From the NCBI GenBank assembly GCA_965222225.1, contig CBDCTK010000002.1:2944001-3008000 (forward strand): DNA of 64,000 nt. Reading direction: 5' to 3'. Each line of letters starts with the position of its first letter. The stretch's first letter is position 1. Origin of the DNA: Candidatus Poribacteria bacterium (GTDB taxonomy: Bacteria; Poribacteria; WGA-4E; JAJDTR01). This document shows positions 10,050-45,606 of the stretch, piece after piece. A program made the translations under genes and the position numbers. The notes below the pieces were generated by a model, which was not told the origin of the DNA, searched no databases, and saw only the letters and a program-made list of their open reading frames with translations.

Positions 10050-13000
10050 TTGGCGAATCCTTTCTTCGATCAGCCCATCCTCAACTCGCCCTACGAGCCC
10101 CCAAGCCGTCATTGGGAGCTGGATGCGTCGGGACAGCCAACCCAGAATAGAATAGACAACCGAAGGCGGGCAGAATTCATCACGCCGGTGCCCAAGCCGA
10201 AGAAGCGAAGGCGATCCTCCTCTAAACAAACGGACATCATATTCGACGAAGGAAAGGGACTTTCAACTCAGCAGCAGCAGTACCACACGGCGATTATCAA
10301 TGAGGTGCGCCAATTCGTTGACCAGTGGCGAAACATCCCGAACTCGAACCAATGGCAGGTGACGCCCGAGACTGCGCTCTTGCTTCAGCATTGGCGGCAC
10401 CATCAATTCAGCGGTATCCGACCCTTTTTCTGCCAAGTCGAAGCCATGGAAACCGTCATCTGGCTCACCGAGGTTGCGCCGCGCATGAGTCAAGTCGGGA
10501 AGCGCTTCCTTGACCACCTCAAGAACGCCAACAACGACGCCAATCCGGAGCTATCACGGCTGGCGCTCAAGCTGGCAACGGGCGCCGGAAAGACCACGGT
10601 CATGGCGATGTTAATCGCTTGGCAGACAGTCAACGCCGCACGGCGTCCGCAGAGTGGAAGGTTCACGCGCGGTTTCCTTGTGGTTACCCCCGGCATCACC
10701 ATCAAGGACCGGCTGCGTGTGCTGCAGCCCAACGATCCGGACAGTTATTACCGGAGCCGCGAGTTGTTGCCAAGCGACATGCTTCCCGACTTGGAAAAGG
10801 CGAAGATTGTCATCACGAACTACCACGCCTTTAAGTTGCGCGAACGTACGGAACTCTCCAAGGGCGGCCGCGCACTGCTTCAAGGACGAGGGCAGCCCAT
10901 CACGACCCTGGAAACCGAGGGACAGATGCTGCAACGGGCGATGCCCGAACTCATGGGAATTAAGAATCTCATGGTTCTCAACGATGAAGCGCATCACTGC
11001 TACCGCGAGAAGCCGGGCGAGCCGGACGAGGAAAAACTCACGGCGGATGACAGGCAGGAAGCCAAGAAGAACGCGGAAGCAGCCCGCCTCTGGATTTCGG
11101 GGCTAGAGATGGTGGGCAAAAGGCTCGGCATCAACCGCGTGATGGATCTCTCGGCAACGCCGTTTTTCCTGCGCGGCTCAGGCTATGCCGAGGGCACCTT
11201 GTTCCCTTGGACGATGAGCGACTTCTCGCTCATGGATGCCATCGAATGCGGGATTGTCAAGCTGCCGCGGGTGCCGGTAGCGGACAATATCCCCGGCGGC
11301 GAGATGCCCAAGTTTCGCGAGTTGTGGAAAAACATAAGCGCCGACATGCCGAAGAAGGGGCGGGGCAAATCCAAAGATCTCGATCCGCTGAGTCTGCCGG
11401 CGGTACTCCAAACGGCGCTTGAGGCGCTGTACGGGCACTACGCCAACACCTTCGAACTCATGCAAAAGGCGAAGATAGATGTCCCGCCCTGCTTTATTGT
11501 CGTTTGCAACAACACGTCGACATCCAAGCTGGTCTACGACTACATTTCCGGTTTCCACCGTGAAAACGATGATGGCTCAACAACCTTGGTAGACGGGCGA
11601 CTCGAACTGTTTCGTAACTATGACGAGTACGGCAACCAGTACGCCCGACCGCGTACACTGTTAATCGACAGCGAACAGTTGGAATCCGGCGACGCACTAG
11701 ACAAAAACTTCCGCAAGATGGCGAGCGACGAGATTGAGCGCTTTCGGAGGGAGATTATCGAGCGCACCGGCAATCGCGAAGCGGCGGACAAAATCACGGA
11801 CCAAGAACTCCTGCGCGAAGTGATGAACACGGTAGGCAAACCGGGAACTCTCGGGGATTCGATTCGCTGCGTGGTTTCGGTGTCCATGCTCACCGAGGGA
11901 TGGGATGCCAACACCGTCAGCCACGTGCTCGGCGTTCGCGCTTTTGGTACACAGTTGCTCTGCGAGCAGGTTGTCGGTCGGGCGCTGCGCCGCCAATCCT
12001 ACGATCTCAATGATGCTGGTTTATTCGACGTGGAGTACGCAGACGTATTGGGGATACCCTTCGACTTTACAGCGAGACCCGTTCCTGTCATACCCAAGCC
12101 ACCTAAGCCAACTATTCAGGTGAAGGCGATGCGGCCCGAGCGGGATGCGCTTGAAGTTCGATTCCCGCGGGTAGCGGGTTATCGTGTAGAGTTGCCCGAG
12201 GAGCGGCTCAACGCCGAATACAACGACGACTCGGTGCTGACACTCACTCCAGAACTTGTCGGTCCGTCGATAACGAGGAACGAAGGAATTATCGGCGAGG
12301 GCGTCGATCTCAATCTGATTCACACCGGCGACCTCCGCCCCTCGACGCTATTGTTTAAGCTCACGCAGCGGTTAATCTTTACGAAGTGGCGGGATACGGG
12401 CGAAGAACCAAAACCCCATCTCTTTAATCAACTCAAGCGCATCACAAAGAGGTGGCTCGACGGTTATCTCGTCTGCAAGGGGGGAACCTATCCCGCCCAA
12501 CTCATGTACCAAGAGTTGGCTGACATGGCATGCGAGCGCATAACGGCTGCCATCACACGAAAGGAAATCGGCAGGCGTCCCGTCAAAACGGTGCTCGACC
12601 CCTACAACCCTACCGGCTCCACCGCCCACGTCAGTTTCAGCACCTCCAAGACAGACCGCTATAAAACGGATTCTCGCCGCTGCCACATCAACTGGGTCAT
12701 TCTTGATAGCGACTGGGAGGCGGAGTTCTGCCGCGTGGCGGAATCCCATCCGCGCGTCAAAGCCTACGTCAAGAATCACAACCTCGGTCTTGATGTGCCC
12801 TACCGTTACGGGTCGGCCACGCGGACGTACCTACCGGACTTTATCGTCCTCGTCGATGATGGGCACGGCGAGGACGACCTCTTGCGCCTCATCGTTGAGA
12901 TTAAAGGTTATCGCGGAGAGGACGCCAAGGACAAGAAATCCACGATGGAAACGTACTGGGTTCCCGGCGTAAATCTCCACGGCAGCTACGGGCGCTGGGC

Positions 13001-13106
13001 GTTTGCCGAATTCACGGATGTTTACGAGATTGAATCGGACTTTGAAGCCAAGGTGGAGGCAGAGTTCAACAAAATGATTGAGGAACACGTCAATCTGTGT
13101 AGTTAA
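10050..13106 (+). CDS. res: Type III restriction endonuclease Res subunit (BPTD_3080-like)
   Basis: ATGAGKT Walker A, DEAHH, LSATP, EGWD, EQVVGRALR and C-terminal YLPDF...VEIKG nuclease motif. Confidence 0.9.
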   Translation: MANPFFDQPILNSPYEPPSRHWELDASGQPTQNRIDNRRRAEFITPVPKPKKRRRSSSKQTDIIFDEGKGLSTQQQQYHTAIINEVRQFVDQWRNIPNSNQWQVTPETALLLQHWRHHQFSGIRPFFCQVEAMETVIWLTEVAPRMSQVGKRFLDHLKNANNDANPELSRLALKLATGAGKTTVMAMLIAWQTVNAARRPQSGRFTRGFLVVTPGITIKDRLRVLQPNDPDSYYRSRELLPSDMLPDLEKAKIVITNYHAFKLRERTELSKGGRALLQGRGQPITTLETEGQMLQRAMPELMGIKNLMVLNDEAHHCYREKPGEPDEEKLTADDRQEAKKNAEAARLWISGLEMVGKRLGINRVMDLSATPFFLRGSGYAEGTLFPWTMSDFSLMDAIECGIVKLPRVPVADNIPGGEMPKFRELWKNISADMPKKGRGKSKDLDPLSLPAVLQTALEALYGHYANTFELMQKAKIDVPPCFIVVCNNTSTSKLVYDYISGFHRENDDGSTTLVDGRLELFRNYDEYGNQYARPRTLLIDSEQLESGDALDKNFRKMASDEIERFRREIIERTGNREAADKITDQELLREVMNTVGKPGTLGDSIRCVVSVSMLTEGWDANTVSHVLGVRAFGTQLLCEQVVGRALRRQSYDLNDAGLFDVEYADVLGIPFDFTARPVPVIPKPPKPTIQVKAMRPERDALEVRFPRVAGYRVELPEERLNAEYNDDSVLTLTPELVGPSITRNEGIIGEGVDLNLIHTGDLRPSTLLFKLTQRLIFTKWRDTGEEPKPHLFNQLKRITKRWLDGYLVCKGGTYPAQLMYQELADMACERITAAITRKEIGRRPVKTVLDPYNPTGSTAHVSFSTSKTDRYKTDSRRCHINWVILDSDWEAEFCRVAESHPRVKAYVKNHNLGLDVPYRYGSATRTYLPDFIVLVDDGHGEDDLLRLIVEIKGYRGEDAKDKKSTMETYWVPGVNLHGSYGRWAFAEFTDVYEIESDFEAKVEAEFNKMIEEHVNLCS

Positions 13107-13195: not shown

Positions 13196-14359
13196 ATGAG
13201 TGGTCGACGCTTACAAATAACATTGCAGCCTGACGTGTTGCGTTGGGCGCGAGAACGAGCCAAACTTCAGCCCGAAGAATTGGCGAACAAGATGGGCGTG
13301 AAACGGCATGAGCGCGTGTTGGAATGGGAGCGCGATGGGAAGATTAGCGTTGCACAGGTAGACAAACTCGCCAAATGCACCTATACGCCGTTGGGGTTTC
13401 TATATTCGAAAGAACCGCCTGACGAGCGCTTGCCAATCGCCGACTTCCGATCTCGAGAGGGCACTCCGCCACCTAGCCCCGACCTGCTTGATACCGTCTA
13501 TTTGATGCAGCGGCGGCAAGGATGGATGCGCGATGAACTTATTAAGGACGGCGTTGAGCCGCTGGATTTTGTCGGGGCTTACGGGTTGGATTCCCAGCCT
13601 CGGCACGTTGCAAGCGCCATGCGCGAGGCGCTCCAACTTCCCAATGGATGGGCACAGGCGGAAGGGACCAAAAGTGACGCTCTTAGGCGTCTGCGAAGCC
13701 GATTTGATGCCGCAGGCGTGTTGGTTTGTTTTAACGGCGTGGTGGGCAACAACACGCGCCGAAAGTTAGATCCAAAGGAATTTCAGGGTTTTGCGCTTGC
13801 TGATGAGTATGCCCCTCTTATCTTCGTGAATAATGCGGATTTCAGAGCTGCACAAATCTTCACCCTAGCTCACGAACTAGCTCATCTCTTCATTGCCAAG
13901 ACTGGTGTCTCTACTCTTGAAGCCCTTCAACCGTCCCCAGATGATACCGAGAAGTTCTGTGACAAAGCTGCGCCGGAATTTCTGGTGCCAGCGGAAGAAT
14001 TACGTGCGTTCTGGTCTCTGTCCGGAACGAATAATCCTTTGCAAGCTGTTGCTACCAAGTTCAAAGTGAGTTCCATTGTGGCCGCTCGCCGGGCGCTTGA
14101 CCTCAAGTTAATCAGTACGGATACTTTCTTCAACTTCTATAGAGCGAATGCCAAAGAATGGGACGGCAATCAGCCGCGTGAAGATGACGGTAGAAACTTC
14201 TGGAATACGCAGAAATGGCGGATAGGGCCCCGATTTTCCACAGCAATTGTACGAGCGGTCAAAGAAGAGCGCACGCTCTATCGCGAGGCGTACAACCTCA
14301 CCGGTCTGTGGGGAGACACCTTTGAAAACATTCCGGGAAAGATGGGGATGGTGTTGTGA
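13196..14359 (+). CDS. XRE-HTH + ImmA/IrrE zinc metallopeptidase
   Basis: N-terminal HTH and FTLAHELAH (HExxH). Confidence 0.88.
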   Translation: MSGRRLQITLQPDVLRWARERAKLQPEELANKMGVKRHERVLEWERDGKISVAQVDKLAKCTYTPLGFLYSKEPPDERLPIADFRSREGTPPPSPDLLDTVYLMQRRQGWMRDELIKDGVEPLDFVGAYGLDSQPRHVASAMREALQLPNGWAQAEGTKSDALRRLRSRFDAAGVLVCFNGVVGNNTRRKLDPKEFQGFALADEYAPLIFVNNADFRAAQIFTLAHELAHLFIAKTGVSTLEALQPSPDDTEKFCDKAAPEFLVPAEELRAFWSLSGTNNPLQAVATKFKVSSIVAARRALDLKLISTDTFFNFYRANAKEWDGNQPREDDGRNFWNTQKWRIGPRFSTAIVRAVKEERTLYREAYNLTGLWGDTFENIPGKMGMVL

Positions 14360-14918
14360 TGAACCGAGTGTGTAGGTTGGGTTGAACGGAAATCTCATGA
14401 AAAATTACATGCAGCAGTTGGGTTTCGCTATACTTTTTCACTCAAGCAGGGCATCGGAAAGTAGAGCGCTGCTTGGAAGCTTGATAGAACTTGGTTGTTG
14501 ACTGCTTAACCTAACCTATGCCGCTGGTCTTAGAGGTGGCACTTTTTAAAACATTTCTTATACGATGGATCAATCGGGGAAAATAGTGTACACTACATAA
14601 GAACATTCTCCGTTCTATGGATTTAGTAAGAAGCCCCTTGATGCCGACGAGAGCCTATTTAAAGTCGTGCATCAGCGCGCTATGTTGGAGCAGACAGCCG
14701 CAGAAGATTTAATGTGGAGCAAGAATTATGGTCGCAGCGAACTGGAGACCCCTAGACCACGGGAGTTTTGCCTTCGCTGCAGGGCAGCATATTCGTCGTA
14801 GGACAAAGGTATACCCGGGTAACAAAATGAGTTTTAGAATCCTTCGCAATATCAATGTTGTTGTTTGCCGTATTTTACATAAACCTGTCCCGGCTATTTC
14901 TTGGAAGATAAGGAGTCA

Positions 14919-15719
14919 ATGGTTCTTATGAAGCCACAGATCATAGCCTTCGAAAATCCACCAGTCAATGAAGTTGTGGTATCAACCTATTTTGATCCAC
15001 CATTATCTGACTTCCGCAACGAGCATATCGGCCTGTTCTGGGGAATAATAAAGGACGAATTTCCTAACGTGCACCAGCGGATTCCAGTGGGATTCGCACC
15101 AGAGGTCATTGATAACGAGTTTCCAATGCCCAGGTACTGGTTTATCTCGGAGAATGAAACAAACTTAATTCAGATTCAACAAAATGCCTTTATGTTTAAC
15201 TGGCGGCGTAGACACGAGGAGAGATATCCGCGCTTTCACAGGACTATCAAGCCGACATTTGACAAATACTACGGTATTTTCAGCGAATTTGCCCGAACGC
15301 AAGCCAACGTCACTGACCTTACTATTAGCCGTTGTGAATTGGGATACATTAATATTCTAGAAACGTTTGAGTTGTGGAAAGGACCGCAAGATACGACAAA
15401 GGTCATCCCGTCATTCTCGTTTCTAGAAGTTGGTATCAACAATGCCGTGCCTCAGGGATTCAATTCCAATTACATTTACAACGTAGAAACTGATTTGCAG
15501 ATTAACATTGGTATACGAGCTGTAACTAAAGTACAGGAACGAGGATCCCCGGTGCTGATATTTGAAATTAGAGCGATTGGTAACTTCGGGCAGGTTGCAC
15601 AACCAGCAACGGATGAATGGTTCGAGCGTGCTCATGGGGCCATTAAAAATTGCTTTCTTGGTATGACAAGTTCCGAGATTCAGAATCGCTTTTGGAAACC
15701 CGTGGAGGAAATGCAATGA
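14919..15719 (+). CDS. TIGR04255-family protein
   Basis: FENPPVNEVV N-terminus, RYWFIS...LIQIQ, YPRF, ELGYIN and WFERAH; AGGAG RBS. Confidence 0.8.
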   Translation: MVLMKPQIIAFENPPVNEVVVSTYFDPPLSDFRNEHIGLFWGIIKDEFPNVHQRIPVGFAPEVIDNEFPMPRYWFISENETNLIQIQQNAFMFNWRRRHEERYPRFHRTIKPTFDKYYGIFSEFARTQANVTDLTISRCELGYINILETFELWKGPQDTTKVIPSFSFLEVGINNAVPQGFNSNYIYNVETDLQINIGIRAVTKVQERGSPVLIFEIRAIGNFGQVAQPATDEWFERAHGAIKNCFLGMTSSEIQNRFWKPVEEMQ

Positions 15720-16555
15720 ATACGGAAGCAACTGCTACTGACGAAGATTATCGACTACTTGCATCCTTGATGGATTTCGGCTCCACTTCGACCTCAGACC
15801 CAAATTGGGACTGGATTCCGCCAAGTCCCCGTCCCATTTTCTTCGATACTGATGCTGAAACACATACCGATTGGTCGTTTAGTGGCGTTGTCGGTGAATC
15901 TTCTGACATAGTTACAGATGATTTGAACCGCCCAACTAGCCGGGAAAATATGTTGGCGGCCGAGCCTAAAGCACGGATGCCAAAGGTGCGGTTAACGAAA
16001 ATGTCCTATATTGTCCTATTCGGCGCATTACGTAGCAATGCGCAGTTCAATAATTCTGCTATGAGCAAGATGTTAGCGTGGAGCGACTGGACATCCGTTA
16101 ACCACAGACCTCCCCCATCCGTCTATGATATGACTGCCCTAACCGGTCTGCAAGTGCAATTAATGCCTAAAGCTACAGAAAAACAGAGAGAATTTCAGCA
16201 AGTTTGGCAAGCTTATAAGGTCCGAATCGAGTATTTGCGTAGCGAAGCCGAACTTGATGGTATCACTGTGAACGAGGCGTCCGAAAGGGATTTTTGGTCA
16301 TTCTTCAGATCAATGCCATTCTTACGCAAATCGGGCGTAATACTCATGGACAACGGTAATCTGCGCGCTGTTTGGCGCGGCGAACACAAAAGTCGACTGG
16401 GCCTTCAGTTTCTAGGAGATCAATCGGTAGAGTTTGTTATCTTCAAGCGCCGTCAGGCTGCCAAAGAGGTTTCGAGAGCGGCTGGGTTCGACACGCTAAA
16501 TGGGTTCAAGAAACAGATCCATGCTTTCGATCTCAAGACATTGGTGTACACATGA
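15716..16555 (+). CDS. Hypothetical protein (acidic, disorder-prone N-terminus; folded C-terminus)
   Basis: ATGA overlaps with both neighbouring genes; GGAGG RBS. Confidence 0.65.
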   Translation: MNTEATATDEDYRLLASLMDFGSTSTSDPNWDWIPPSPRPIFFDTDAETHTDWSFSGVVGESSDIVTDDLNRPTSRENMLAAEPKARMPKVRLTKMSYIVLFGALRSNAQFNNSAMSKMLAWSDWTSVNHRPPPSVYDMTALTGLQVQLMPKATEKQREFQQVWQAYKVRIEYLRSEAELDGITVNEASERDFWSFFRSMPFLRKSGVILMDNGNLRAVWRGEHKSRLGLQFLGDQSVEFVIFKRRQAAKEVSRAAGFDTLNGFKKQIHAFDLKTLVYT

Positions 16556-17028
16556 TCGGAGACGAACTGCCCGACGATGCGCACGTAGTCCGCTATGTCA
16601 AGTCATCGTGGATTAGCGACGAAGATGGTAGTATAGATGGTGAGGCATTCCGATTGAAATCAAATGAAAGCGGTCTCTCCGTTAACTGGTTGGAATGGTT
16701 TGGAAACTGTACCAAAGCACAGCAACTAAATGGGGTAAGGCGGCTCTACCGGTTGGAGATGCGAAAGAGCGGATGTCTAGCGGAATTAAATGTCGGTGCA
16801 ACAAAGCGATATGTTCTTAAACACACTGCCCTTAAGTTCATCCATGAGCCTTTGCCTGCCGAGAGTATCTATGAGGCAGATCCGTCACATAGTGAGATAA
16901 CAGGGCTACCACCGGGAGATTCTCTTCCGGCCGCACTGCTTGGCGACATGATCGCCGAATCCATATTAGCCACTCATCCGACATTACAACAGGTAATTGA
17001 CAAAATGACAGACATTGAAGACAGATGA
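16552..17028 (+). CDS. Hypothetical protein with possible ADP-ribosyltransferase/RES-like motif pattern
   Basis: VVRY ... AFRL ... GLSVNW ... DPSHSEI; translationally coupled to the upstream gene. Confidence 0.55.
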   Translation: MIGDELPDDAHVVRYVKSSWISDEDGSIDGEAFRLKSNESGLSVNWLEWFGNCTKAQQLNGVRRLYRLEMRKSGCLAELNVGATKRYVLKHTALKFIHEPLPAESIYEADPSHSEITGLPPGDSLPAALLGDMIAESILATHPTLQQVIDKMTDIEDR

Positions 17029-17151
17029 AACGTTTGAGCACACCAACATCACCACGCCCAAGTATTAAATTGTGAGAGTGGAGACCGAGTCCAACAAAAC
17101 AACTAAAGAATACGTTACTCGTTGCGTTGCAATGAACCCGTAGGAAGACCA

Positions 17152-17415
17152 ATGAACAGAGATGAAGTCTTGAAGGTGCTCCGAGCGCATAAAGCGATTC
17201 TTGCACAACGCTTTGGAATCACAAACCTCGCCTTATTCGGCTCAGTGGCGCGTAACGACATGTCCGATGACAGCGACATTGACATCTTGGTTCGTTTTGA
17301 CTGACCGGGAACCTCAAAAGCCTACTTCGGGATGCAGTTTTACTTGGAGGACCTGTTGGGTTGTCCCGTTGATTTGGTCACTGACAAGGCGTTGCGGGTG
17401 GAACTACGTCCCTAA
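17152..17415 (+). pseudogene. Minimal nucleotidyltransferase (MNT antitoxin) pseudogene
   Basis: LFGSVARND...SDIDILV, in-frame TGA at 17302-17304, then the frame continues as YLEDLLGCPVDLVT. No HEPN partner follows. Confidence 0.8.
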
Positions 17416-17533
17416 GGCAATCAATGTGTAGGAACGCTCAGGGAACCCACGGCTGACGTTCTTTCATTGGCACACGACCGTATTTGTCGGACACAGAACG
17501 GGAATTTATGAGCCACAAAGCTTTTTGTTGCCA

Positions 17534-17762
17534 AGTTCGACTTTGTACATTTAAGCGGGATAACGGACGGTGTCAATTAAGCGTTGAAGAAAAGCGGGGG
17601 AGATTTTAACTAGCTGGTCTTTTTGGTTGAACATTGAAAAAGTCGTCAGCGGTTTCTGATATTGTGCAACTTGTCAGGATCTCTATCGCCCTCACTGTGG
17701 GATCTTCTATCGCCTTCGTTATCCACTCAGTTGATCGTTCGGTTGATCCCGCGCTGGGGCTT
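17534..17762 (+). repeat. ~190-bp intergenic block with promoter-like motif and nested hairpin elements; homologous to 36156-36342
   Basis: Colinear similarity with 36156-36342. Its left end also occurs inverted at 9838-9880. Confidence 0.8.
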
Positions 17763-18910
17763 ACAATGGATTAGTTGTGCATAAATGCGGGACAACACCC
17801 GTCTCTTAACTCGCCACTCGCCACTCGCCACTAATTACTGTTTTTCCCACTGAACTATGCCTGCTAAACGCAAAAAGAATACAAAGACCAAGACCGTCGA
17901 AACACTCACACATCCTGACGATAAACGGGCCAACATCCCGACCGCTGAACTCCAGCCGGTGATGGAGGACGATGACCCCGTACCGGTCACCTACGAGCGC
18001 AACCGCGACCTCGATCCCCAATTCGTGTGGCGGGGCAAGGATGAACAGGACTGGTCGAATCTGGTGGTGCAGGCGCCACCGCTTTTCATCCAAGAAAAGG
18101 TGCATCCGAAGGTGCTGATTGACGACCTGATGCGCGACGCGCAGTCCGACCGGGAGGCGCCTAAGGAGCAACTCGACCTGTTCGCGGATTTCAACGGCTT
18201 GCCGAGCGAAGACGCCAAGACGGAGTTCTACCAGCACGACGCCAACTGGTCGAACCGGATGATTCTCGGCGACAGCTTGCGGGTGATGGCATCGCTGGCG
18301 GAGCGCGAAGGGCTGCGCGGAAAGGTGCAGTGCATCTACATCGATCCGCCCTACGGCATCAAGTTCAACTCCAACTTCCAGTGGTCCACCACCAGCCGCG
18401 ACGTTAAGGACGGCAAGGCTGATCACATCACACACGAGCCAGAGCAGGTGAAGGCGTTTCGGGACACCTGGCGCGACGGAATTCACTCCTACCTGACCTA
18501 TCTGCGAGACCGGCTGACTGTGGCGCGTGACTTGCTGACGGAGAGCGGTTCAATCTTTGTGCAGATCGGGGATGAGAATGTGCATCGGGTGAGAGGATTG
18601 ATGGATGAAGTATTTGGGGAAGAGAATTTCTTTGCACAGATCGCTTTTAGAAAGTCTTCTCCTCTTGGTTCTAAGGGGTTGATGGGGATTTATGATGTAT
18701 TGCTGTGGTATTCAAGGGAGCGAAGTGTATCTAAATATCGCCAATTGTTGGTTGATAAGTTATATGGCACAGACGCGCCATTTACTATGGGAGACTTGAA
18801 GTCCTCTGGGTATACCCCTTCGTGTACGTATGACTTTGAATTCAGGGGACAGACCATAAAACTGCAAAGAAAGAGTTGGCGAACGACTGCCGAAGGCATG
18901 AAAAATTTAA

Positions 18911-20159
18911 CGGAATTAGTAGCTTGTAGCTTTTAGACTGACGACAAACATAAAACTTGGTACCCTGTCGTAAATCTTTTCGTCACACGTAGATGTCCAT
19001 AGTGACTATTCTTCTCGTAGGAGTTTGCTATGGACATTTTGAATCTTATGAAAGAGTTTCCAAATCAAGAATCTTGTCTCAGATTTATAGAGGAAAAACG
19101 TTGGAAGGACGGTGTTTGCTGTATCCACTGTGGCAGTGAAAAAGTTGGACGCAAGAACAAAAACGACATTACTACTGGTTGGAATTGCTACGATTGTGAA
19201 TCTAGCTTTTCGGCTACAGCAGGAACCATCTTCCATGGTACCAAGATACCTCTCCAGAAATGGTTTTTGGCTATCTCAATTCTTTCCAATGCCAAGAAAA
19301 GCATATCGAGTTGTCAGCTTGCTCGTGACTTGGACATGAATCAAAAGTCCGCTTGGTATATGGCAATGCGCCTCCGTGAGAAAATGAGTGATAGTGATGA
19401 ATTGCTGAAAGGGATAGTTGAAGCGGACGAAACCTATGTCGGCGGCAAACCCAGAGCAAAATCTAAGAGAGGTAGAGGCACAAATAAATCTCCCGTCATC
19501 GGCGTAGTCGAGAGAGGCGGTCGGGTGGTTGCTAAATTCATGAAGGTTCTATCTGGTGAAAATATCAGAGAATTCATCCTTAGCAATGTCTCACCCGATG
19601 AGTCTATTCTTATGACTGATGAATTTCGCTCTTACAATAGTCTGGACGAAGATATCGAAAGACATGTTATCCATCACCAAGAGAGATATGTTTCTGAGGA
19701 CGGCGTAACTCACACCAACACCATCGAGTCGTTTTGGGCTTGTGTCAAGAGGTCATTCTACGGAACGCATCATCACTACAGCAAGAAGTGGCTGCCACTG
19801 TATATCATGGAGTCTTGCTGGAAATATAATCGCAGAAAAGATGATGAGATTTTCATAAGATTTTTTGATGAATGCTTCACCTGAGCCACATGAATTGTTT
19901 GGCTATCGGTATATTCTGTCAACGACAACATCATGGTGTGCTGAAAATCCCATAGTGTTGGAAATTAAAATCCCGCAGATAACCCGCAATGCTCCCGCGA
20001 GCATGTACAAACGCTTGGTCAACATGATATGCCTCCATTTCTCTCTTATAGAGATGTATTTTAGTGTGAATCAAGATTCCGAACACTGTCTAAAATGATT
20101 GTACATTAAGAAGAGAAAAGCAAGCAAATCGACCAAAAAGCAGTTAACTACTAAGTCCC
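18911..20159 (+). mobile_element. IS1595-family insertion sequence (1249 bp)
   Basis: 8-bp target duplication AAATTTAA at 18903-18910 and 20160-20167; imperfect terminal IRs CGGAATTAGTAGCT / GGGACTTAGTAGTT (reverse complement). Confidence 0.92.
19030..19884 (+). CDS. IS1595-family transposase
   Basis: Zn ribbon CxxC...CxxC, VEADETYVGG, MTDE and HTNTIESFW. Confidence 0.93.
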   Translation: MDILNLMKEFPNQESCLRFIEEKRWKDGVCCIHCGSEKVGRKNKNDITTGWNCYDCESSFSATAGTIFHGTKIPLQKWFLAISILSNAKKSISSCQLARDLDMNQKSAWYMAMRLREKMSDSDELLKGIVEADETYVGGKPRAKSKRGRGTNKSPVIGVVERGGRVVAKFMKVLSGENIREFILSNVSPDESILMTDEFRSYNSLDEDIERHVIHHQERYVSEDGVTHTNTIESFWACVKRSFYGTHHHYSKKWLPLYIMESCWKYNRRKDDEIFIRFFDECFT

Positions 20160-21517
20160 AAATTTAATTCTCGCAGATCGCCTCATTGACACCAAAGGAG
20201 AAATTCCAAGATACAAACAGATTGCCGCAGATTTCCCGATGCAAGAAATTAACAATTTGTGGGATGATACCTCCGGTGCCACGAATATGAAGTACGTTGT
20301 TGAAACCTCCAATAAAGTCATCCAGCGCTGCATCCTCATGACGACCGACCCGGGCGATCTCGTACTCGACCCCACCTGCGGCTCAGGCACCACCGCTTAC
20401 GTCGCCGAGGGTTGGGGCAGGCGCTGGATCACGATTGACACCTCTCGCGTAGCGCTTGCCTTAGCGCGTTCCCGCATCATGGGGGCGCGTTACGACTACT
20501 ACCTTCTCTCCGACAGCCGTGAGGGACAACTCAAAGAGGCGGAGATTGAAGGCAAAGCGCCCTCGGAAACCCCAACCTACGACGATATCCGTCAGGCGTT
20601 CGTGTACGAGCGAGTGCCGCACATCACGCTCAAGTCCATCGCCAACAACGCCGAGATTGATGTTATCTGGGAGCGGTATGAGGAGGAGCTGGCGCCGCTC
20701 CGCGCCGAGTTGTCGGAGGTTAGCGGTCAAGCGAAAACGCTTGAAGAGTGGGAGATTCCGCGCGAACGCCCCGATGATTGGAACCCCACCGCCGAGCCGC
20801 TGCTCGCCGCTTTCTGGGAACTGCGTCTCGCCCGCCAGAAAGAGATTGACGCCTCCATCGCCGCCAAAGCCGAGGTCGAATACCTTTACGACAAACCCTA
20901 CGAAGACAAAAAGAAGGTGCGCGTGGCGGGTCCCTTCACCGTGGAGAGCCTGTCGCCGCACCGCGTGCTGGGGGTTGACGAGGACGACGAACTGATTGAT
21001 AACCTCGCTGAAGATAAGCTCGGCTACGGCGAAGCTCAAGACTTCGCCACCGTAATCTTGGAGCACCTCAAGACCTCCGGCGTTCAGCAGGCGCATAAGG
21101 AGGACCGCATCTCTTTTACCAGTATCAAACCTTGGCCCGGCGCCCTCGTCTGTGCCGAGGGCAGATACGTCGAGCGAGACCCCGACTCCGGCGACGAAAA
21201 ACGCGCCGGTATCTTCATTGGCCCCGAATTTGGCACCGTCTCCCGTCCCGACCTCGTTGAGGCTGCCCGCGAGGCGGCGGACGCCGACTTTGACCTCCTG
21301 ATAGCTTGTGCTTTCTCCTACGAAGCGCACTCCACTGATCTCCACAAACTCGGTAAAATCCCGATACTCAAAGCGAGGATGAACGCCGATCTCCACATGG
21401 CTGCCGATCTCAGCAATACCGGTAAGGGGAATCTGTTTGTGATTTTCGGAGAGCCGGATATTACAGTGGCCAGTGGCCCGTGGCTAGTGACCAGTAAAGG
21501 AGAAAAATTTGCAAATT

Positions 21518-21790
21518 ATGAACAAGTTAAAAAGTTATCAAGACTTGGAAGTTTGGAAGAAATCAATCGAGTTGGCAGAGATGGTCTATCGAATCTCTGC
21601 GGAGTTTCCGCCGGAGGATCAAACGAGCGAATAGCGAGTGCGATAGAGATCTCTAACGGAGACATTTCTGATTCTGGCGCAGCGGTTGGGGATCGCCAAA
21701 GCCGAACAAATCAATCCCTTACTAGCCCTGGCGGGGGACATTGGACGGATGCTCAACGGTCTCAAACGCTCGCTGCGATCCAGAACTTGA
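21518..21790 (+). pseudogene. Four-helix-bundle (23S rRNA IVS protein/Avd-like) gene nested in the +1 frame of mod, core replaced by a hairpin element
   Basis: MNKLKSYQDLEVWKKSIELAEMVYRISAEFPPE...TETFLILAQRLG...IGRMLNGLKRSL*; flanked by inverted heptamer runs (21464-21495 and 21807-21831). Confidence 0.8.
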
Positions 21791-22187
21791 CCGACGCGGA
21801 CTTCCCGCTGGCACTGACCACTGGCGACTGGACACAAGTAACGGTGCACGGTGTTGATGTTTTTCATCCCAACACGGGGGAGATTCGGAGCGACAGCACG
21901 GACGGCATCGCCTGCTGGTTCATTGATACCGATTACAACGCGGAGAGTGTTTTTGTGCGTCACGCCTATTTCCTCGGCGCGAATGACCCGTACAAATCCC
22001 TCAAGACGACGCTGAAAGCGGAGATTAACCACGAGGCGTGGGAGACGCTCCACAGCGACACCTCGCGGCCGTTTGAGAAGCCGGCATCCGGGCGGATTGC
22101 CGTTAAGGTTATTAATCACCTTGGGGATGAGGTGATGAAGGTTTTTCGGGTGTAGGGACGCACCGAAACAGAGAATTTTCTTCAAAA

Positions 22188-22224
22188 GGGATCTCTATCG
22201 CCCTCGCTGTTCGCTCGGTTGATC
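22188..22224. repeat. Covarying hairpin element
   Basis: GGGATCTCTATCGC-cc-TC-gc-TGTTC-gc-TC-gg-TTGATC. Confidence 0.85.
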
Positions 22225-22265
22225 GGTTTCTTCCACTAACCACTGACCACTAGGCACTGCATTTC

Positions 22266-24338
22266 ATGGATTTTCGAATTGCCAACACCTTCACCGACAG
22301 CCTTGCCAAACTGACCGGGGTTGAGCAGAAGGCTGCCAAGACGGCGGCTTTCGACCTCCAGATGAATCCGGCGCAGCCAGGACTGCAATTCCACAAGCTG
22401 GCGAAGACCAAGGACCCGAACTTCTGGTCTGTACGCGTCAATAACGACGTGCGAATCATCGTGCATCGCAGCCAGAACAGCTTGGTGCTGTGCTACGTGG
22501 ATCACCACGACAACGCCTATCGGTGGGCGGAGCGGCGCAAGCTGGATGTTCATCCCCAAACCGGCGCTGCTCAATTGGTTGAAGTGCGGGAGACTATCTA
22601 AGAAATCACCGTTCCCGTCTACGCCCCAACCGAGACGGAGGTGCCACCTAAGCCGCCGCTCTTCGCGGAAATGCCCGATGACGATTTGCTGGGTTACGGC
22701 GTGCCTGAGGAGTGGCTGGAGGAGGTTCGCAAGGCCGACGAGGATAGCCTGCTGGTGTTGTCCGATCACTTGCCGAGAGAGGCGGCGGAGGCGTTGCTTG
22801 AGTTGGCTGTCGGCGGAACGCCGCCGATAATCCTGCCCGTTGTTACCGCCGCCGACCCGTTCGATCACCCCGATGCTCAGCGCCGTTTCCGTTTGATGGC
22901 AAACGTCGAGGAACTGGAGCGCGCGCTCGACTACCCTTGGGAGAAGTGGGCGGTGTTCCTTCACCCGGCGCAGCGGCAGGTGGTCGAAGGGGATTACAAT
23001 GGCGCGTTTCGAGTGGCTGGCTCAGCCGGTACCGGCAAGACCGTCGTGGCAATCCACCGCGCCGTATCTCTCGCACGCGCGAACCCGGACGCCAGGGTTC
23101 TACTCACCACCTTCTCCAAGATCTTGGCTGATGCGCTGCGGACAAAACTCAAACGGTTAATCTACAACGAACCGCGGCTTGCGGAACAGGTGGAAGTCGA
23201 CGCGGTGGACGCGGTTGGTGAGCGGCTGTATCGGGCGCATTTCGGCTCCCGGGAAATAGCAACCCAGGAACAGATACAGTCGATTCTGACCGACGTTCTC
23301 AAGGGCACGGAGACGAATCGTTTCAGTTTGCGATTCCTGCTTGGCGAATGGGAGAGCGTCGTTGACGCCTGGCAGTTGGATAGCTGGGAGGCGTATCGCG
23401 ATATCAGAAGGCTTGGGCGCAAAACACGTCTGCCGGTGGAGAGACGGTTTCTCCTTTGGTCCATTTTTGAACAGGTCAAGACCGGTCTTCGGGAACGCGG
23501 CTTGGTGACCCGTGCGGAATTGTTCAGTTTAACTGCGCAAAAACTCAAAGCGCGCCGGCATCCGCCGTTCGATTTCGTGGTTGTGGATGAGGCGCAGGAC
23601 GTTAGCGTTCCCCAACTGCGTTTCCTCGCCGCATTGGGCGGGGACCGCGCTAACAGTCTCTTTTTCGCAGGCGATCTTGGACAACGGATTTTCCAAACGC
23701 CGTTTTCGTGGAAAGCGCTGGGTGTCGATGTTCGGGGAAGATCTCAGACGCTTAAAATCAACTATCGAACGTCACATCAAATTCGGCAGCAGGCAGATCT
23801 GTTGCTGGGGTTGGAAGGCGCCGATGTCGATGGTAACGTTGAGGATCGACGCGGAACGATTTCGGCATTTAACGGCGAACCTCCGACAATCCACCGCTGT
23901 GAGAGCGAGCAGGACGAGGCGGAAATTGTCGGCGTATGGTTGCAGGAACGTCGGGACGAAGGCGTGGAAGCGGTGGAGATTGGGGTATTCGTGCGATCAA
24001 CGAGGGAGCTGGAGCGTGCGTGTGCGGCGGTGCGCGGTGCCGGGTTGCCGTATCGGGTGTTGGACGATGGGAGTACAACGGGTGACGACCCCGTATCCGT
24101 TAGCACAATGCACTTGGCGAAGGGCTTGGAGTTCCGCGCCGTAGCCGTCATGGCGTGTGACGACGAAGTCATCCCGCTACAGGAGCGGATAGAGACCGTT
24201 GCGGATGATGCGGACCTTGAGGAGGTCTACAACACGGAGCGGCACCTGTTATACGTCGCCTGTACACGGGCGCGGGATCATTTGCTCATCACGAGTGTTG
24301 AGCCGGCGTCGGAGTTTTTGGATGACTTGGAGATGTAG
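22266..24338 (+). pseudogene. UvrD/Rep superfamily-1 helicase with N-terminal RelE-like domain; single in-frame TAA
   Basis: GSAGTGKT, VDEAQD, NYRT, HLAKGLEF and YVACTRAR. TAA at 22599-22601 is in frame with the downstream ORF, so 22641-24338 could still be translated separately. Confidence 0.8.
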
Positions 24339-24764
24339 ACTGCCGCGGCAATTGTAGGAGCGATCTCCAAATCACGACAGGTCGAGAATCGGAAGTTGGT
24401 TTTCACTTGGATTTCCGAGGCATCAATTGGAGCGGATACTCCGGATGCAATTCATAGTCTCGGTGTTATCGGAAAATTCCTTTCAACCCAACCTACGGGC
24501 TGGCTCGCTATCCTCGGGTTGATCTCTATAGGAAACTCATCACTCTCCACTAGTCACTGCCTCCCCACTCCCCACTGTCTCTCCACACAATGTGCTTGAC
24601 TTTTGTCGCAAGCGCCGCTATGATGTTTACCAATACGCTAGCGCACGTTGACAACAGTAGTAGGGTGGCGCCGCCCGCCATTGCTTGTTCGGCACCATAA
24701 ATCCCTGCATCTTAACTCGCCACTCTCCACTAACCACTGCTCTTACCATGCAAGGGGTTCGTGT

Positions 24765-25628
24765 ATGAAAATCATTGATTCGGATATGCAGAAACAGTTT
24801 ATGAATGACGGTTTTTACGTCTTCAGAAATATGCTTGAGCCAGAACTGATCGATACGTTGAGGGGAATCACGGATGATGTGCTCGCGCAGCAGGAGGAGG
24901 CGCATTTCGAGCAGCAACGCGCGCCGGGCAGCATGGTGCTCATCGATTGGGAGATGGCGTACCGGCATGATGTGCTAGCTGAACTGATTGCTCACCCGAA
25001 AATGCTGAAGGGGCTGTCTGAACTGGGATTCGCGGAGCCGAAGTTTGGGCATGGGCGCATCATCAGCAAGCCGCCGCACAGCCCGCGATTGTTTTGGCAC
25101 GAGGACGGCAGGTTCTGGTACGATCCGGTCAGTTATACGCCGCAGCCCATCCAGTGTTTTCTGATGTACTATCTCGTGGACACCGCGCCGGAGAACGGGT
25201 GCTTGCGGGTGATTCCGGGATCGCATCTGAAGCGCCACGCGCTGCATGACCAAGTTCCAGTGCGGCATGCCGAAAAATTGAAAACGTATGCGGATCCGCA
25301 TCACATCGCTTTCCAACATGCGGAGGGAGAGATTGATGTGCCGGTGAAGGCGGGGGATGCGGTGATGGGCTACGGCACGCTGTTTCACTCCGCCCACGCC
25401 AACCAGACGAATCAACGCCGGACGGGGCTTACGATGTGGTATTATCCCGATTTCGTCGACCTGCCCGAGCACACCCAAGCTACAGTGGCGTCCTTGGAGA
25501 CCGACACCCAAGTCACGAGATGCTCGCCGGGGCAGAGGCAGCGTCTTATGGAGCCACTCAGGATTGTGTACGAAGGCGATGCCGAATCCATCCCGCAGCA
25601 GTGGACGCCGGGAGAGGATTTGAGATAG
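24765..25628 (+). CDS. Phytanoyl-CoA dioxygenase (PhyH)-family 2-oxoglutarate/Fe(II) dioxygenase
   Basis: WHED (HxD), ENGCLRVIPGSH, distal His (LFHSA) and RR. Confidence 0.88.
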   Translation: MKIIDSDMQKQFMNDGFYVFRNMLEPELIDTLRGITDDVLAQQEEAHFEQQRAPGSMVLIDWEMAYRHDVLAELIAHPKMLKGLSELGFAEPKFGHGRIISKPPHSPRLFWHEDGRFWYDPVSYTPQPIQCFLMYYLVDTAPENGCLRVIPGSHLKRHALHDQVPVRHAEKLKTYADPHHIAFQHAEGEIDVPVKAGDAVMGYGTLFHSAHANQTNQRRTGLTMWYYPDFVDLPEHTQATVASLETDTQVTRCSPGQRQRLMEPLRIVYEGDAESIPQQWTPGEDLR

Positions 25629-45404: not shown

Positions 45405-45606
45405 GGGATCTCTATCGATCAAATGAGCGAATAGCGAATGCGATAGAGATCCCAAGGCGATAGCAAATCCGGCTCCTTATTCAGTCGTCTGATGGTCTGG
45501 ATTTGTCAATCCAGCAGTATCAAGCAATTAGGGAGTTTCAGGGAATAGCGATTGTGCGAGATTTTCTATGGGAACGCTATCGCGCTCATTATCCATTCGC
45601 TTGATC
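45405..45606. repeat. Cluster of hairpin elements including an opposite-orientation nested copy
   Basis: Outer 45405-45493, inner 45417-45453, further copy 45558-45606. Confidence 0.8.

Follow-up and report, generated by a model that had tools for sequence, protein, structure and literature searches.

How does a methyltransferase gene come to hold, in the middle of its C-terminal half, a long stop-free stretch that looks like a low-complexity linker in its own frame and like a four-helix-bundle (4HB) protein in the +1 frame? The question is raised by the mod gene of a Candidatus Poribacteria bacterium, within a 64,000-nt stretch of contig CBDCTK010000002.1 (assembly GCA_965222225.1, positions 2,944,001 to 3,008,000 of the forward strand). 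This whole stretch is called the window here, and the segment lies at 21464-21831 within it. An earlier inspection of the letters alone, referred to below as the sequence-only reading, had proposed a mobile cassette akin to the intervening sequences (IVSs) of 23S rRNA, either tolerated as an in-frame insert, removed at the RNA level, or dual-coding. With a probability of roughly three in four, we take the segment to be a decayed copy of an IVS-like selfish 4HB cassette inside mod, tolerated by read-through. This reading is carried by the observed anatomy of the element, the two open frames in its relatives, the pattern of selection, the comparison of filled with empty sites and the variety of genes that act as hosts. 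It describes a habit of a known family of selfish elements that is apparently undescribed; no 4HB/S23p cassettes inside coding sequences were found in the literature searched, which did not cover subscription journals.

Anatomy of the cassette in the window

The Mod frame of the window is free of stops throughout 21464-21831. It places 130 residues between the EPD and GVDVF motifs, against 15-16 in insert-free homologues, and the same anchors stand 390 nt apart, against 45-48 nt in most insert-free loci. The excess of about 114 residues agrees well with the roughly 110 that the sequence-only reading had counted between EPDI and VHGVDVF. The inverted heptamers that it had noticed at both ends do form an inverted repeat, with 19-nt arms that are 84% complementary, and folding of the cassette RNA gave an enclosing terminal stem (-133.9 kcal/mol, z = -3.1; 2 of 100 shuffles were as good). 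The AAGGAG motif was likewise located upstream of the ATG that opens the +1 frame (Table 1).

The 4HB gene proposed in that frame was borne out in its family and not in its integrity. Searched as a hidden Markov model, TIGR02436 matched the +1 frame at 32.9 bits (cut-off 24), with two stops read as X. These stops are TAG codons at 21632-21634 and 21644-21646, with three codons between them, which the ellipses in the peptide of the sequence-only reading had concealed, and profile positions 24-67 of 109 are lost. The window therefore lacks the uninterrupted four-helix open reading frame (ORF) of about 110-125 codons that 28 of 29 full-length relatives possess. Because of the two in-frame TAG stops and the replacement of the central 132 nt, the +1 frame of the window is a remnant, not a gene.

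Table 1. Positions in the 64,000-nt window of the cassette, its parts and the genes around it.
Feature	Position	Strand	Basis
Putative decayed 4HB cassette of the IVS type, with the Mod frame open across it	21464..21831	+	alignment to intact cassettes; none in 51/91 Mod loci
Left arm, tandem heptamers (CAGTGGC type), Mod-frame SGPWLV	21464..21495	+	Tandem Repeats Finder period 7, 4.6 copies; paired in minimum-free-energy and consensus structures
Shine-Dalgarno-like AAGGAG	21497..21502	+	15 nt before the 4HB ATG at 21518
4HB remnant, N-terminal 38 codons (helix 1) up to the first TAG	21518..21634	+	TIGR02436 positions 1-23, NF008911 positions 1-31
36-nt small dispersed repeat containing both TAG stops	21616..21651	+	replaces 132 nt in the middle of the nested gene
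4HB remnant, C-terminal 44 codons (end of helix 3, helix 4) and TGA (21788)	21656..21790	+	TIGR02436 positions 68-108 of 109
Right arm, inverted heptamers (CACTGAC / CACTGGC), Mod-frame ALTTGDW	21812..21830	+	inverted repeat, terminal stem
res subunit gene	10050..13106	+	1018-aa ORF with ResIII and RE_endonuc Pfam domains
IrrE-like helix-turn-helix and M78 peptidase gene	13196-14359	+	between res and mod
mod N-terminal part, motif IV side (DPPY)	17857..18921	+	PF01555 profile positions 1-113 of 221
IS1595-family insertion, ends approximate	18922..20184	+	transposase ORF 19030-19884, PF12762 126.4 bits, PF12760 29.2 bits
mod C-terminal part (motif I and C-terminal domain), cassette host	20185..22155	+	PF01555 positions 139-218 of 221

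The same cassette in Mod genes of relatives

Mod homologues fall into proteins of 1034-1113 aa, from many phyla, which span the insert, and others of 898-929 aa without it. To compare them at the DNA level, we assembled 91 Mod loci, comprising the window, 11 loci from relatives and 79 from named genome records (L026 and L037 being one genome), and anchored them on the flanking GEPD and GVDV motifs; loosened anchors placed all 91. A full-length cassette was present in 29 of these loci and occurred in two types. Type A measures 486 nt between the anchors, with flanks reading SGQWLV and FPLSLTT, and type B measures 459 nt, with flanks reading ASEEWLV and SPLTT. Deletion derivatives of 210-390 nt occupied 9 loci, and 51 loci held no cassette, with 15-37 residues between the anchors. 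The alignment to Mod homologues, proposed earlier as a check, thus finds the segment in many of them; it is the same cassette each time and, given its absence from 51 of 91 loci, not a domain of Mod.

Both reading frames are open in most of these copies. Of the 29 full-length cassettes, 27 continue the Mod frame without a shift or a stop (L030 and L054 carry frameshifts), 28 keep the 4HB frame open from end to end of the profile (in L061 it ends at codon 78), and 26 do both. Intact nested ORFs of relatives matched PF05635 at 133.4 and 135.6 bits (cut-off 33.8; E ~1e-39) over positions 1-106. The canonical start column reads ATG in 25 of 28 aligned cassettes, and a purine-rich motif precedes the start in 25 of 28. 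All nine deletion derivatives, of at least six different lengths, are multiples of three and stop-free in the Mod frame, and the 4HB gene is destroyed in every one of them.

At locus L055, a second, standalone PF05635 gene (L055:2382-2747) lies between a DUF1016/YhcG nuclease gene and mod, and a HamA and helicase pair, Hachiman-like, follows mod (L055:6066-10086).

The frame on which selection acts

Selection was examined on the 26 nested ORFs of exactly 122 codons. Nucleotide diversity at 4HB codon positions 1, 2 and 3 was 0.327, 0.265 and 0.526, a distribution that marks purifying selection on the 4HB protein. The codon-phase pattern is kept in all eight gene segments and within types A and B separately. 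Mean residue identity reached 0.58 in the 4HB frame, whereas the Mod frame (0.362) and the untranslated third frame (0.361) scored alike. Because the Mod-frame residues are conserved no better than those of the third frame, and because so many loci do without the segment, these residues do not constitute a Mod domain.

The absence of stops follows a different rule. None of the 26 ORFs has a stop in the Mod frame, against 3-12 stops in the third frame. When synonymous codons were resampled from the genes' own pool, a stop-free Mod frame arose in 7.9% of trials, with a mean of 2.45 stops. We also considered that the -1 frame of 4HB genes might be open by nature and rejected this, since 24 of 24 standalone PF05635 genes of relatives hold 5-18 stops in the equivalent frame and none is stop-free. 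The pattern says that the host frame has to stay open whatever residues result.

Mobility and the range of host genes

A filled and an empty site outside Mod could be compared directly. One genome of the genus, G008, has a type A cassette within a conserved giant gene unrelated to mod, an open frame of 2781 aa with LysM and Peptidase_M28 domains; the cassette is 82-84% identical in nucleotides to the Mod copies of G003, G005 and G007. The LysM/M28 orthologues of all 20 other genomes searched measure 2058-2580 aa, and in those checked the flanks of the empty site are 9-18 nt apart. Relative to this empty site, about 30 nt of linker in G008 has been replaced in frame by about 630 nt, made up of the cassette and expanded heptamer arrays. 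The heptamer arrays of this copy (L118:1300-1440) are far longer and contain a duplication of a unit of some 45 nt, and its canonical ATG is ACG, the 4HB frame still being open for 125 codons.

Within Mod, the states of the site were placed on a maximum-likelihood tree built from the flanks by a quick method (82 rows, after removal of 9 short ones). In this tree Mods without the cassette are intermingled with those that have type A, type B or a deleted form, well-supported (starred) branches force at least eight changes of the cassette-free state, and one clade of seven rows with 100% support contains types A and B and the decayed form. A single ancient insertion into Mod followed by vertical descent was therefore rejected. 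Allelic recombination may contribute to the interleaving.

To survey hosts more widely, a profile built from 27 host-frame (off-frame) peptides was searched against 1.84 billion representatives clustered at 50% identity. It matched 480 proteins at E <= 0.001, of which 151 at E <= 1e-10. Pfam was run on the 38 matches of at least 624 aa among the 150 matches listed: 20 were Eco57I/MmeI-type enzymes (type IIG methylases), 5 were N6_N4 Mods, 2 were histidine kinases with the insert just before the matched core of HATPase_c, 2 carried DUF1156, 1 combined nSTAND1 and PBP, and 8 had no Pfam family. In the inserts inspected, the peptide opens with heptamer-coded residues of the SGQW or SEEW kind and closes with the PL.T..H kind. 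A further search aimed at longer proteins covered those of up to 2000 residues, where Mods crowd the list, and gave 172 matches; among the best 120 of 172, 99 had PF01555 and 21 had no Pfam family, and no host beyond Mod was found.

In a Planctomycetota sample, the profile matched 67 of 401 genomes (93 matches). Most of these matches have stops and short frames and represent standalone genes read off-frame, which provides a built-in control, and 12 are stop-free in open frames of 448-1616 aa. DNA was checked at nine loci: the nested ORF was intact in eight and the host frame open in eight, L172 failing on both counts. The hosts identified were one N6_N4 Mod, three Eco57I/MmeI-type enzymes and one DnaE-family polymerase. 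In the last, the cassette separates the NTPase domain from the finger domain in a frame of 1360 aa, and the genome has a second DnaE-family gene.

Terminal stem and flanking repeats

The cassette RNA of an intact relative folded with z = -4.8, and the long-range stem was retained in the consensus fold of 28 aligned cassettes. Tested on the same sequences from which the structure was derived, the 21 pairs of the consensus stem showed 93.9% of cells paired, against 28-62% with slid partners, and 28 double-change cells, against 10.6 +/- 4.1 in shuffles, a number that none of 500 shuffles attained. Nearly all of the 24 standalone family members are likewise flanked by inverted arrays of short tandem repeats, and the repeat sequence differs from locus to locus. 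The two other 4HB loci of the window's genome are intergenic (G000:C2:4881900-4882400, L001/L002; and G000:C2:3663100-3663700, L003); one of them is frameshifted, and each has its own inverted tandem-repeat arrays.

Insertion site and transcripts

An AlphaFold model of a cassette-free Mod C-terminus has a mean predicted local distance difference test (pLDDT) score of 54, and only the local hairpin was used from it. There the insertion site falls between strand 88-93 and strand 98-109, joined by a four-residue turn (local pLDDT 69-81), and the cassette is thus predicted to sit at a beta-hairpin turn of the Mod C-terminal domain. For the window C-terminus the mean pLDDT was 73, with a central 40-residue stretch of the insert below 50 and unexpectedly high values in the parts of the insert on either side of it.

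The hairpin turn tolerates insertions in general. In two of the 91 loci (L052 and L053) this turn is occupied by an unrelated insert of 75 aa, charged and coiled-coil-like, and other Mods hold acidic or Ser/Thr-rich loops of 21-37 residues there. Short in-frame inserts resembling translated heptamer arrays without a gene were also seen in P0111, P0073 and P0054 (SGEWRV, SGQWPV, SGLWPV), at three other positions of Mod (alignment columns 530-560, 605-620 and 770-800).

Metatranscriptome contigs from four runs (Logan) cross the left junction of the cassette: X20 covers 21277-21582, X22 covers 21432-21701 and X23 covers 21426-21646. One contig has 212 letters where the window has 116, which is the size of the intact variant. 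No contig joint skipping 21464-21831 was found in the four runs, some bins of which were without cover and in which DNA carry-over is possible.

What the cassette is

In the account that we favour, the cassette is a PF05635/TIGR02436 (S23p/Avd-like) 4HB gene with its own ribosome-binding site, enclosed by inverted heptamer arrays that pair into a stem of about 20-30 bp. In this lineage of cassettes no stops occur in the frame that lies one base upstream of that of the 4HB gene, and the cassette length is divisible by three. Because the host frame is stop-free and the length a multiple of three, a ribosome on mod would pass through the cassette, and Mod would gain a loop of about 115-150 residues whose sequence is unselected. 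In most relatives the 4HB gene, intact and under purifying selection, is thus a nested gene in another frame. In the window, the 36-nt dispersed repeat has displaced the middle third of the 4HB gene, and mod was later split by the IS1595 element. The proposal of an IVS-like mobile cassette in a protein gene is in this respect supported, by family, architecture, filled and empty sites and the interleaved Mod tree. Among the three fates that had been offered for it, the tolerated in-frame insert is the best supported; dual coding applies to relatives, 26 of 29 having the two frames open at once, and not to the copy in the window.

Several points weigh on the other side. The cassette copies are related by descent, and counts such as 26/26 overstate their independence. 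No recognisable transposase is encoded by the cassette, and the term mobile is drawn entirely from comparative evidence. Many forks of the quick Mod tree are unresolved, and recombination within mod could mimic repeated gain. Two parts of the account are inferred, namely production of a Mod that includes the loop and synthesis of the 4HB protein from within the host message; the RNA evidence comes solely from metatranscriptome contigs, which possibly contain DNA. Neither mod nor the 4HB gene is intact in the window, and nothing functional is claimed for this copy. Finally, AlphaFold gave pLDDT >90 for the first ~50 insert residues of the window C-terminus, which could mean a folded host-frame module. 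We did not accept the insert as a real folded domain despite this high pLDDT, the Mod frame being without residue-level selection.

The alternative that survives best, which we nevertheless consider unlikely, takes the 4HB protein as a recruited partner or regulator of the restriction-modification or defence enzyme, with nesting coupling the expression of the two and the cassette domesticated. Such a role would agree with the host bias, since 25 of the 30 long hosts with a Pfam family (among the matches listed) are restriction-system DNA methyltransferases, but the cassette is found as well in unrelated hosts, namely histidine kinases, a DnaE-family polymerase and the LysM/M28 giant protein. 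Purifying selection on the 4HB frame would also be expected of a partner, whereas the 4HB gene was lost in frame while Mod remained whole in 8 of the 9 derivative loci, including Mods of 1034-1064 aa, and 51 of the 91 Mod loci lack the cassette altogether. The second standalone 4HB gene of L055, between res and mod and beside the HamA-helicase pair, may be counted in favour of a partner; standalone members, however, share the inverted heptamer flanks, which points to an element rather than a subunit.

Removal of the cassette from the mod transcript, the third fate proposed, is markedly less probable still. Here RNase III would cut at the terminal stem, as in 23S IVSs, so that no ribosome would read the cassette and the Mod frame would be open only by coincidence. 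The stem is conserved with compensatory changes, and the passages of PMC4990558 on S23p-bearing IVSs have them excised by RNase III. Cutting without RNA rejoining would however destroy the mod message, and an incidental open frame agrees poorly with a host frame free of stops in all 26 ORFs, where standalone genes have 5-18, and with nine of nine deletion derivatives remaining in frame. The evolutionary pattern argues that RNase III excision is neither needed nor supported for the cassette.

That the segment is an ordinary lineage-specific Mod domain or linker, the 4HB likeness of its +1 frame being a by-product, is already contradicted and has almost no probability left: many Mod homologues of 1034-1113 aa do contain the segment and AlphaFold confidence is high for parts of it, but the +1 frame of relatives matches the full PF05635 profile at E ~1e-39, substitutions track the 4HB codon phase with Mod-frame conservation equal to that of the third frame, and the element is found in unrelated proteins too and, with a filled and an empty site, as a polymorphic insertion.

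If the read-through cassette is extended beyond mod, S23p/4HB cassettes may form a widespread mobile class specialised for protein-coding genes, which would land in hairpin turns or linkers, keep one alternative frame open and express an Avd-like protein from the host mRNA, the rRNA IVSs being the special case. We regard the chances of this generalisation as evenly balanced. As a bolder extension, the 4HB protein and the terminal stem perhaps take part in copying the cassette through an RNA intermediate. The only RVT_1 match of the genome is weak (27.5 bits) and lies about 1.5 Mb from the cassette.

Relation to known systems

The passages of PMC4990558 on Coxiella describe a 23S IVS of 428-444 nt that is closed by a terminal stem of 28 bp, has heptameric repeats in tandem ahead of its S23p ORF and is excised by RNase III, and they present the origin and mobility of S23p-bearing IVSs as unclear since their discovery. 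So far as those passages go, the cassette resembles the S23p-bearing 23S IVSs of Coxiella, Leptospira and others in several respects: its protein family is PF05635; its size is comparable, at 459-486 nt between the Mod anchors against 428-444 nt; terminal inverted repeats form a long stem, with tandem heptamers beside the ORF; an S23p-type ORF occupies the loop, on the sense strand of the host; and the distribution is sporadic, with horizontal spread. Unlike the 23S IVSs, it has a protein-coding PF01555 ORF as host and not an rRNA, its length is a multiple of three, one alternative frame is stop-free, and the host would be translated through it.

The 4HB fold family is related to Avd of the diversity-generating retroelements (DGRs), and PF05635 is linked to Avd in the consulted sections of PMC10053308. 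Intact relatives match PF22296 (bAvd) weakly, at 31.9 and 25.2 bits against a 40-bit cut-off, which falls short of a DGR Avd. The neighbouring ORFs scanned held no reverse transcriptase domain, in a scan that did not include template or variable repeats.

Rickettsia palindromic elements (RPEs) are small selfish repeats in coding sequences, translated as an extra segment and tolerated in surface loops. Like RPE-type elements, the cassette has a length that is a multiple of three and brings no stop into the host frame (27 of 29 full-length copies, 9 of 9 derivatives). Unlike these short, gene-less elements, it has a 122-codon gene, under purifying selection, with its own start signals. By analogy, the cassette could be described as an S23p-bearing IVS in its anatomy and, in what it does to the host, as an in-frame palindromic repeat.

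Inteins with homing endonuclease genes are gene-carrying selfish inserts in conserved genes, including polymerases, and splice themselves from the protein. The cassette shares with them filled and empty alleles and a patchy distribution among homologues; unlike an intein, it has its gene in a different frame, and its host-frame peptide is not conserved. No Hint or intein domain was found by Pfam in the 638-aa ORF, which matched N6_N4_Mtase, plus Methyltransf_25 at 18.6 bits, below the 27-bit cut-off.

Small dispersed repeats and heptamer arrays are known in cyanobacteria, and the heptamer tandem arrays and the structured 36-nt dispersed repeat with compensatory changes described here are similar to them. 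To our knowledge, the cyanobacterial repeat work includes no gene-carrying cassettes nested in coding sequences.

The cassette would represent a different way to live inside a gene, with its own gene in one frame and another frame kept open for the host. Filled and empty sites in protein genes would offer tractable cases for studying movement of the IVS type. For annotation, hundreds of database proteins contain an off-frame 4HB translation that resembles a low-complexity linker, the nested gene being left uncalled. The bias to restriction-modification methyltransferases may bear on the regulation or the parasitism of defence genes.

The dispersed repeat in the nested gene

Alignment with intact cassettes showed that about 132 nt of the intact 4HB gene were swapped for about 36 nt in the window. 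The replacing repeat gave 310 blastn-short matches in the 5.7-Mb genome, with the consensus GGGATCAA..GATCCC and compensatory variants visible in its inner hairpin. Copies measure 36-38 nt, take the form GGGATCAA..CGAGCGAATAGCGAGTG..GATAGAGATCCC and are frequently nested or spaced 60-100 nt apart; another lies in the window at 45417-45451 (G000:C2:2989417-2989451). Paired substitutions suggest a hairpin with a tandem G-A mismatch. The repeat had no Rfam match, and no Rfam family was found at E up to 1 in positions 17000-25000.

The restriction-modification locus and the split host gene

The type III-like restriction-modification locus lies on the + strand of the window, in the order res, IrrE-like gene, three ORFs, mod. 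Both halves of the host gene carry PF01555 and a Res helicase-nuclease partner is nearby, which identifies it as Mod; its coding sequence is interrupted by the IS1595-family element from ~18921 to 20185. By tblastn, homology to intact Mods stops at 18915-18921 (at 18747 with the more distant P0021) and restarts at 20164-20212 depending on the query Mod (20185 with the closest, P0002). mod is thus split by an IS1595 element of about 1.26 kb, an interruption that the sequence-only reading had missed. The N-terminal open frame itself spans 17857-18936, and the C-terminal open frame, of 638 aa, spans 20239-22155. The C-terminal part is 81-91% identical to intact Mods of 1034-1082 aa, and the closest named record to this region is a Candidatus Poribacteria metagenome-assembled genome, at 94% identity.

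The res frame is still full-length despite the split mod, and the restriction subunit may now be without its methylase partner. The three ORFs between res and mod, which follow the IrrE-like gene in the region 13196-17028, have no Pfam match. Short heptamer tandem arrays lie just outside gene ends at 17809-17832 (ACTCGCC), 22233-22252 (CCACTAA) and 24561-24576 (CTCCCCA), one of them directly before the mod start and one after the mod stop. Downstream of mod, the region 22266-24338 holds a small ORF with a sub-threshold match to a HigB-like toxin (24.2 bits, cut-off 27) and a 565-aa UvrD-like helicase, which together possibly form another defence module.

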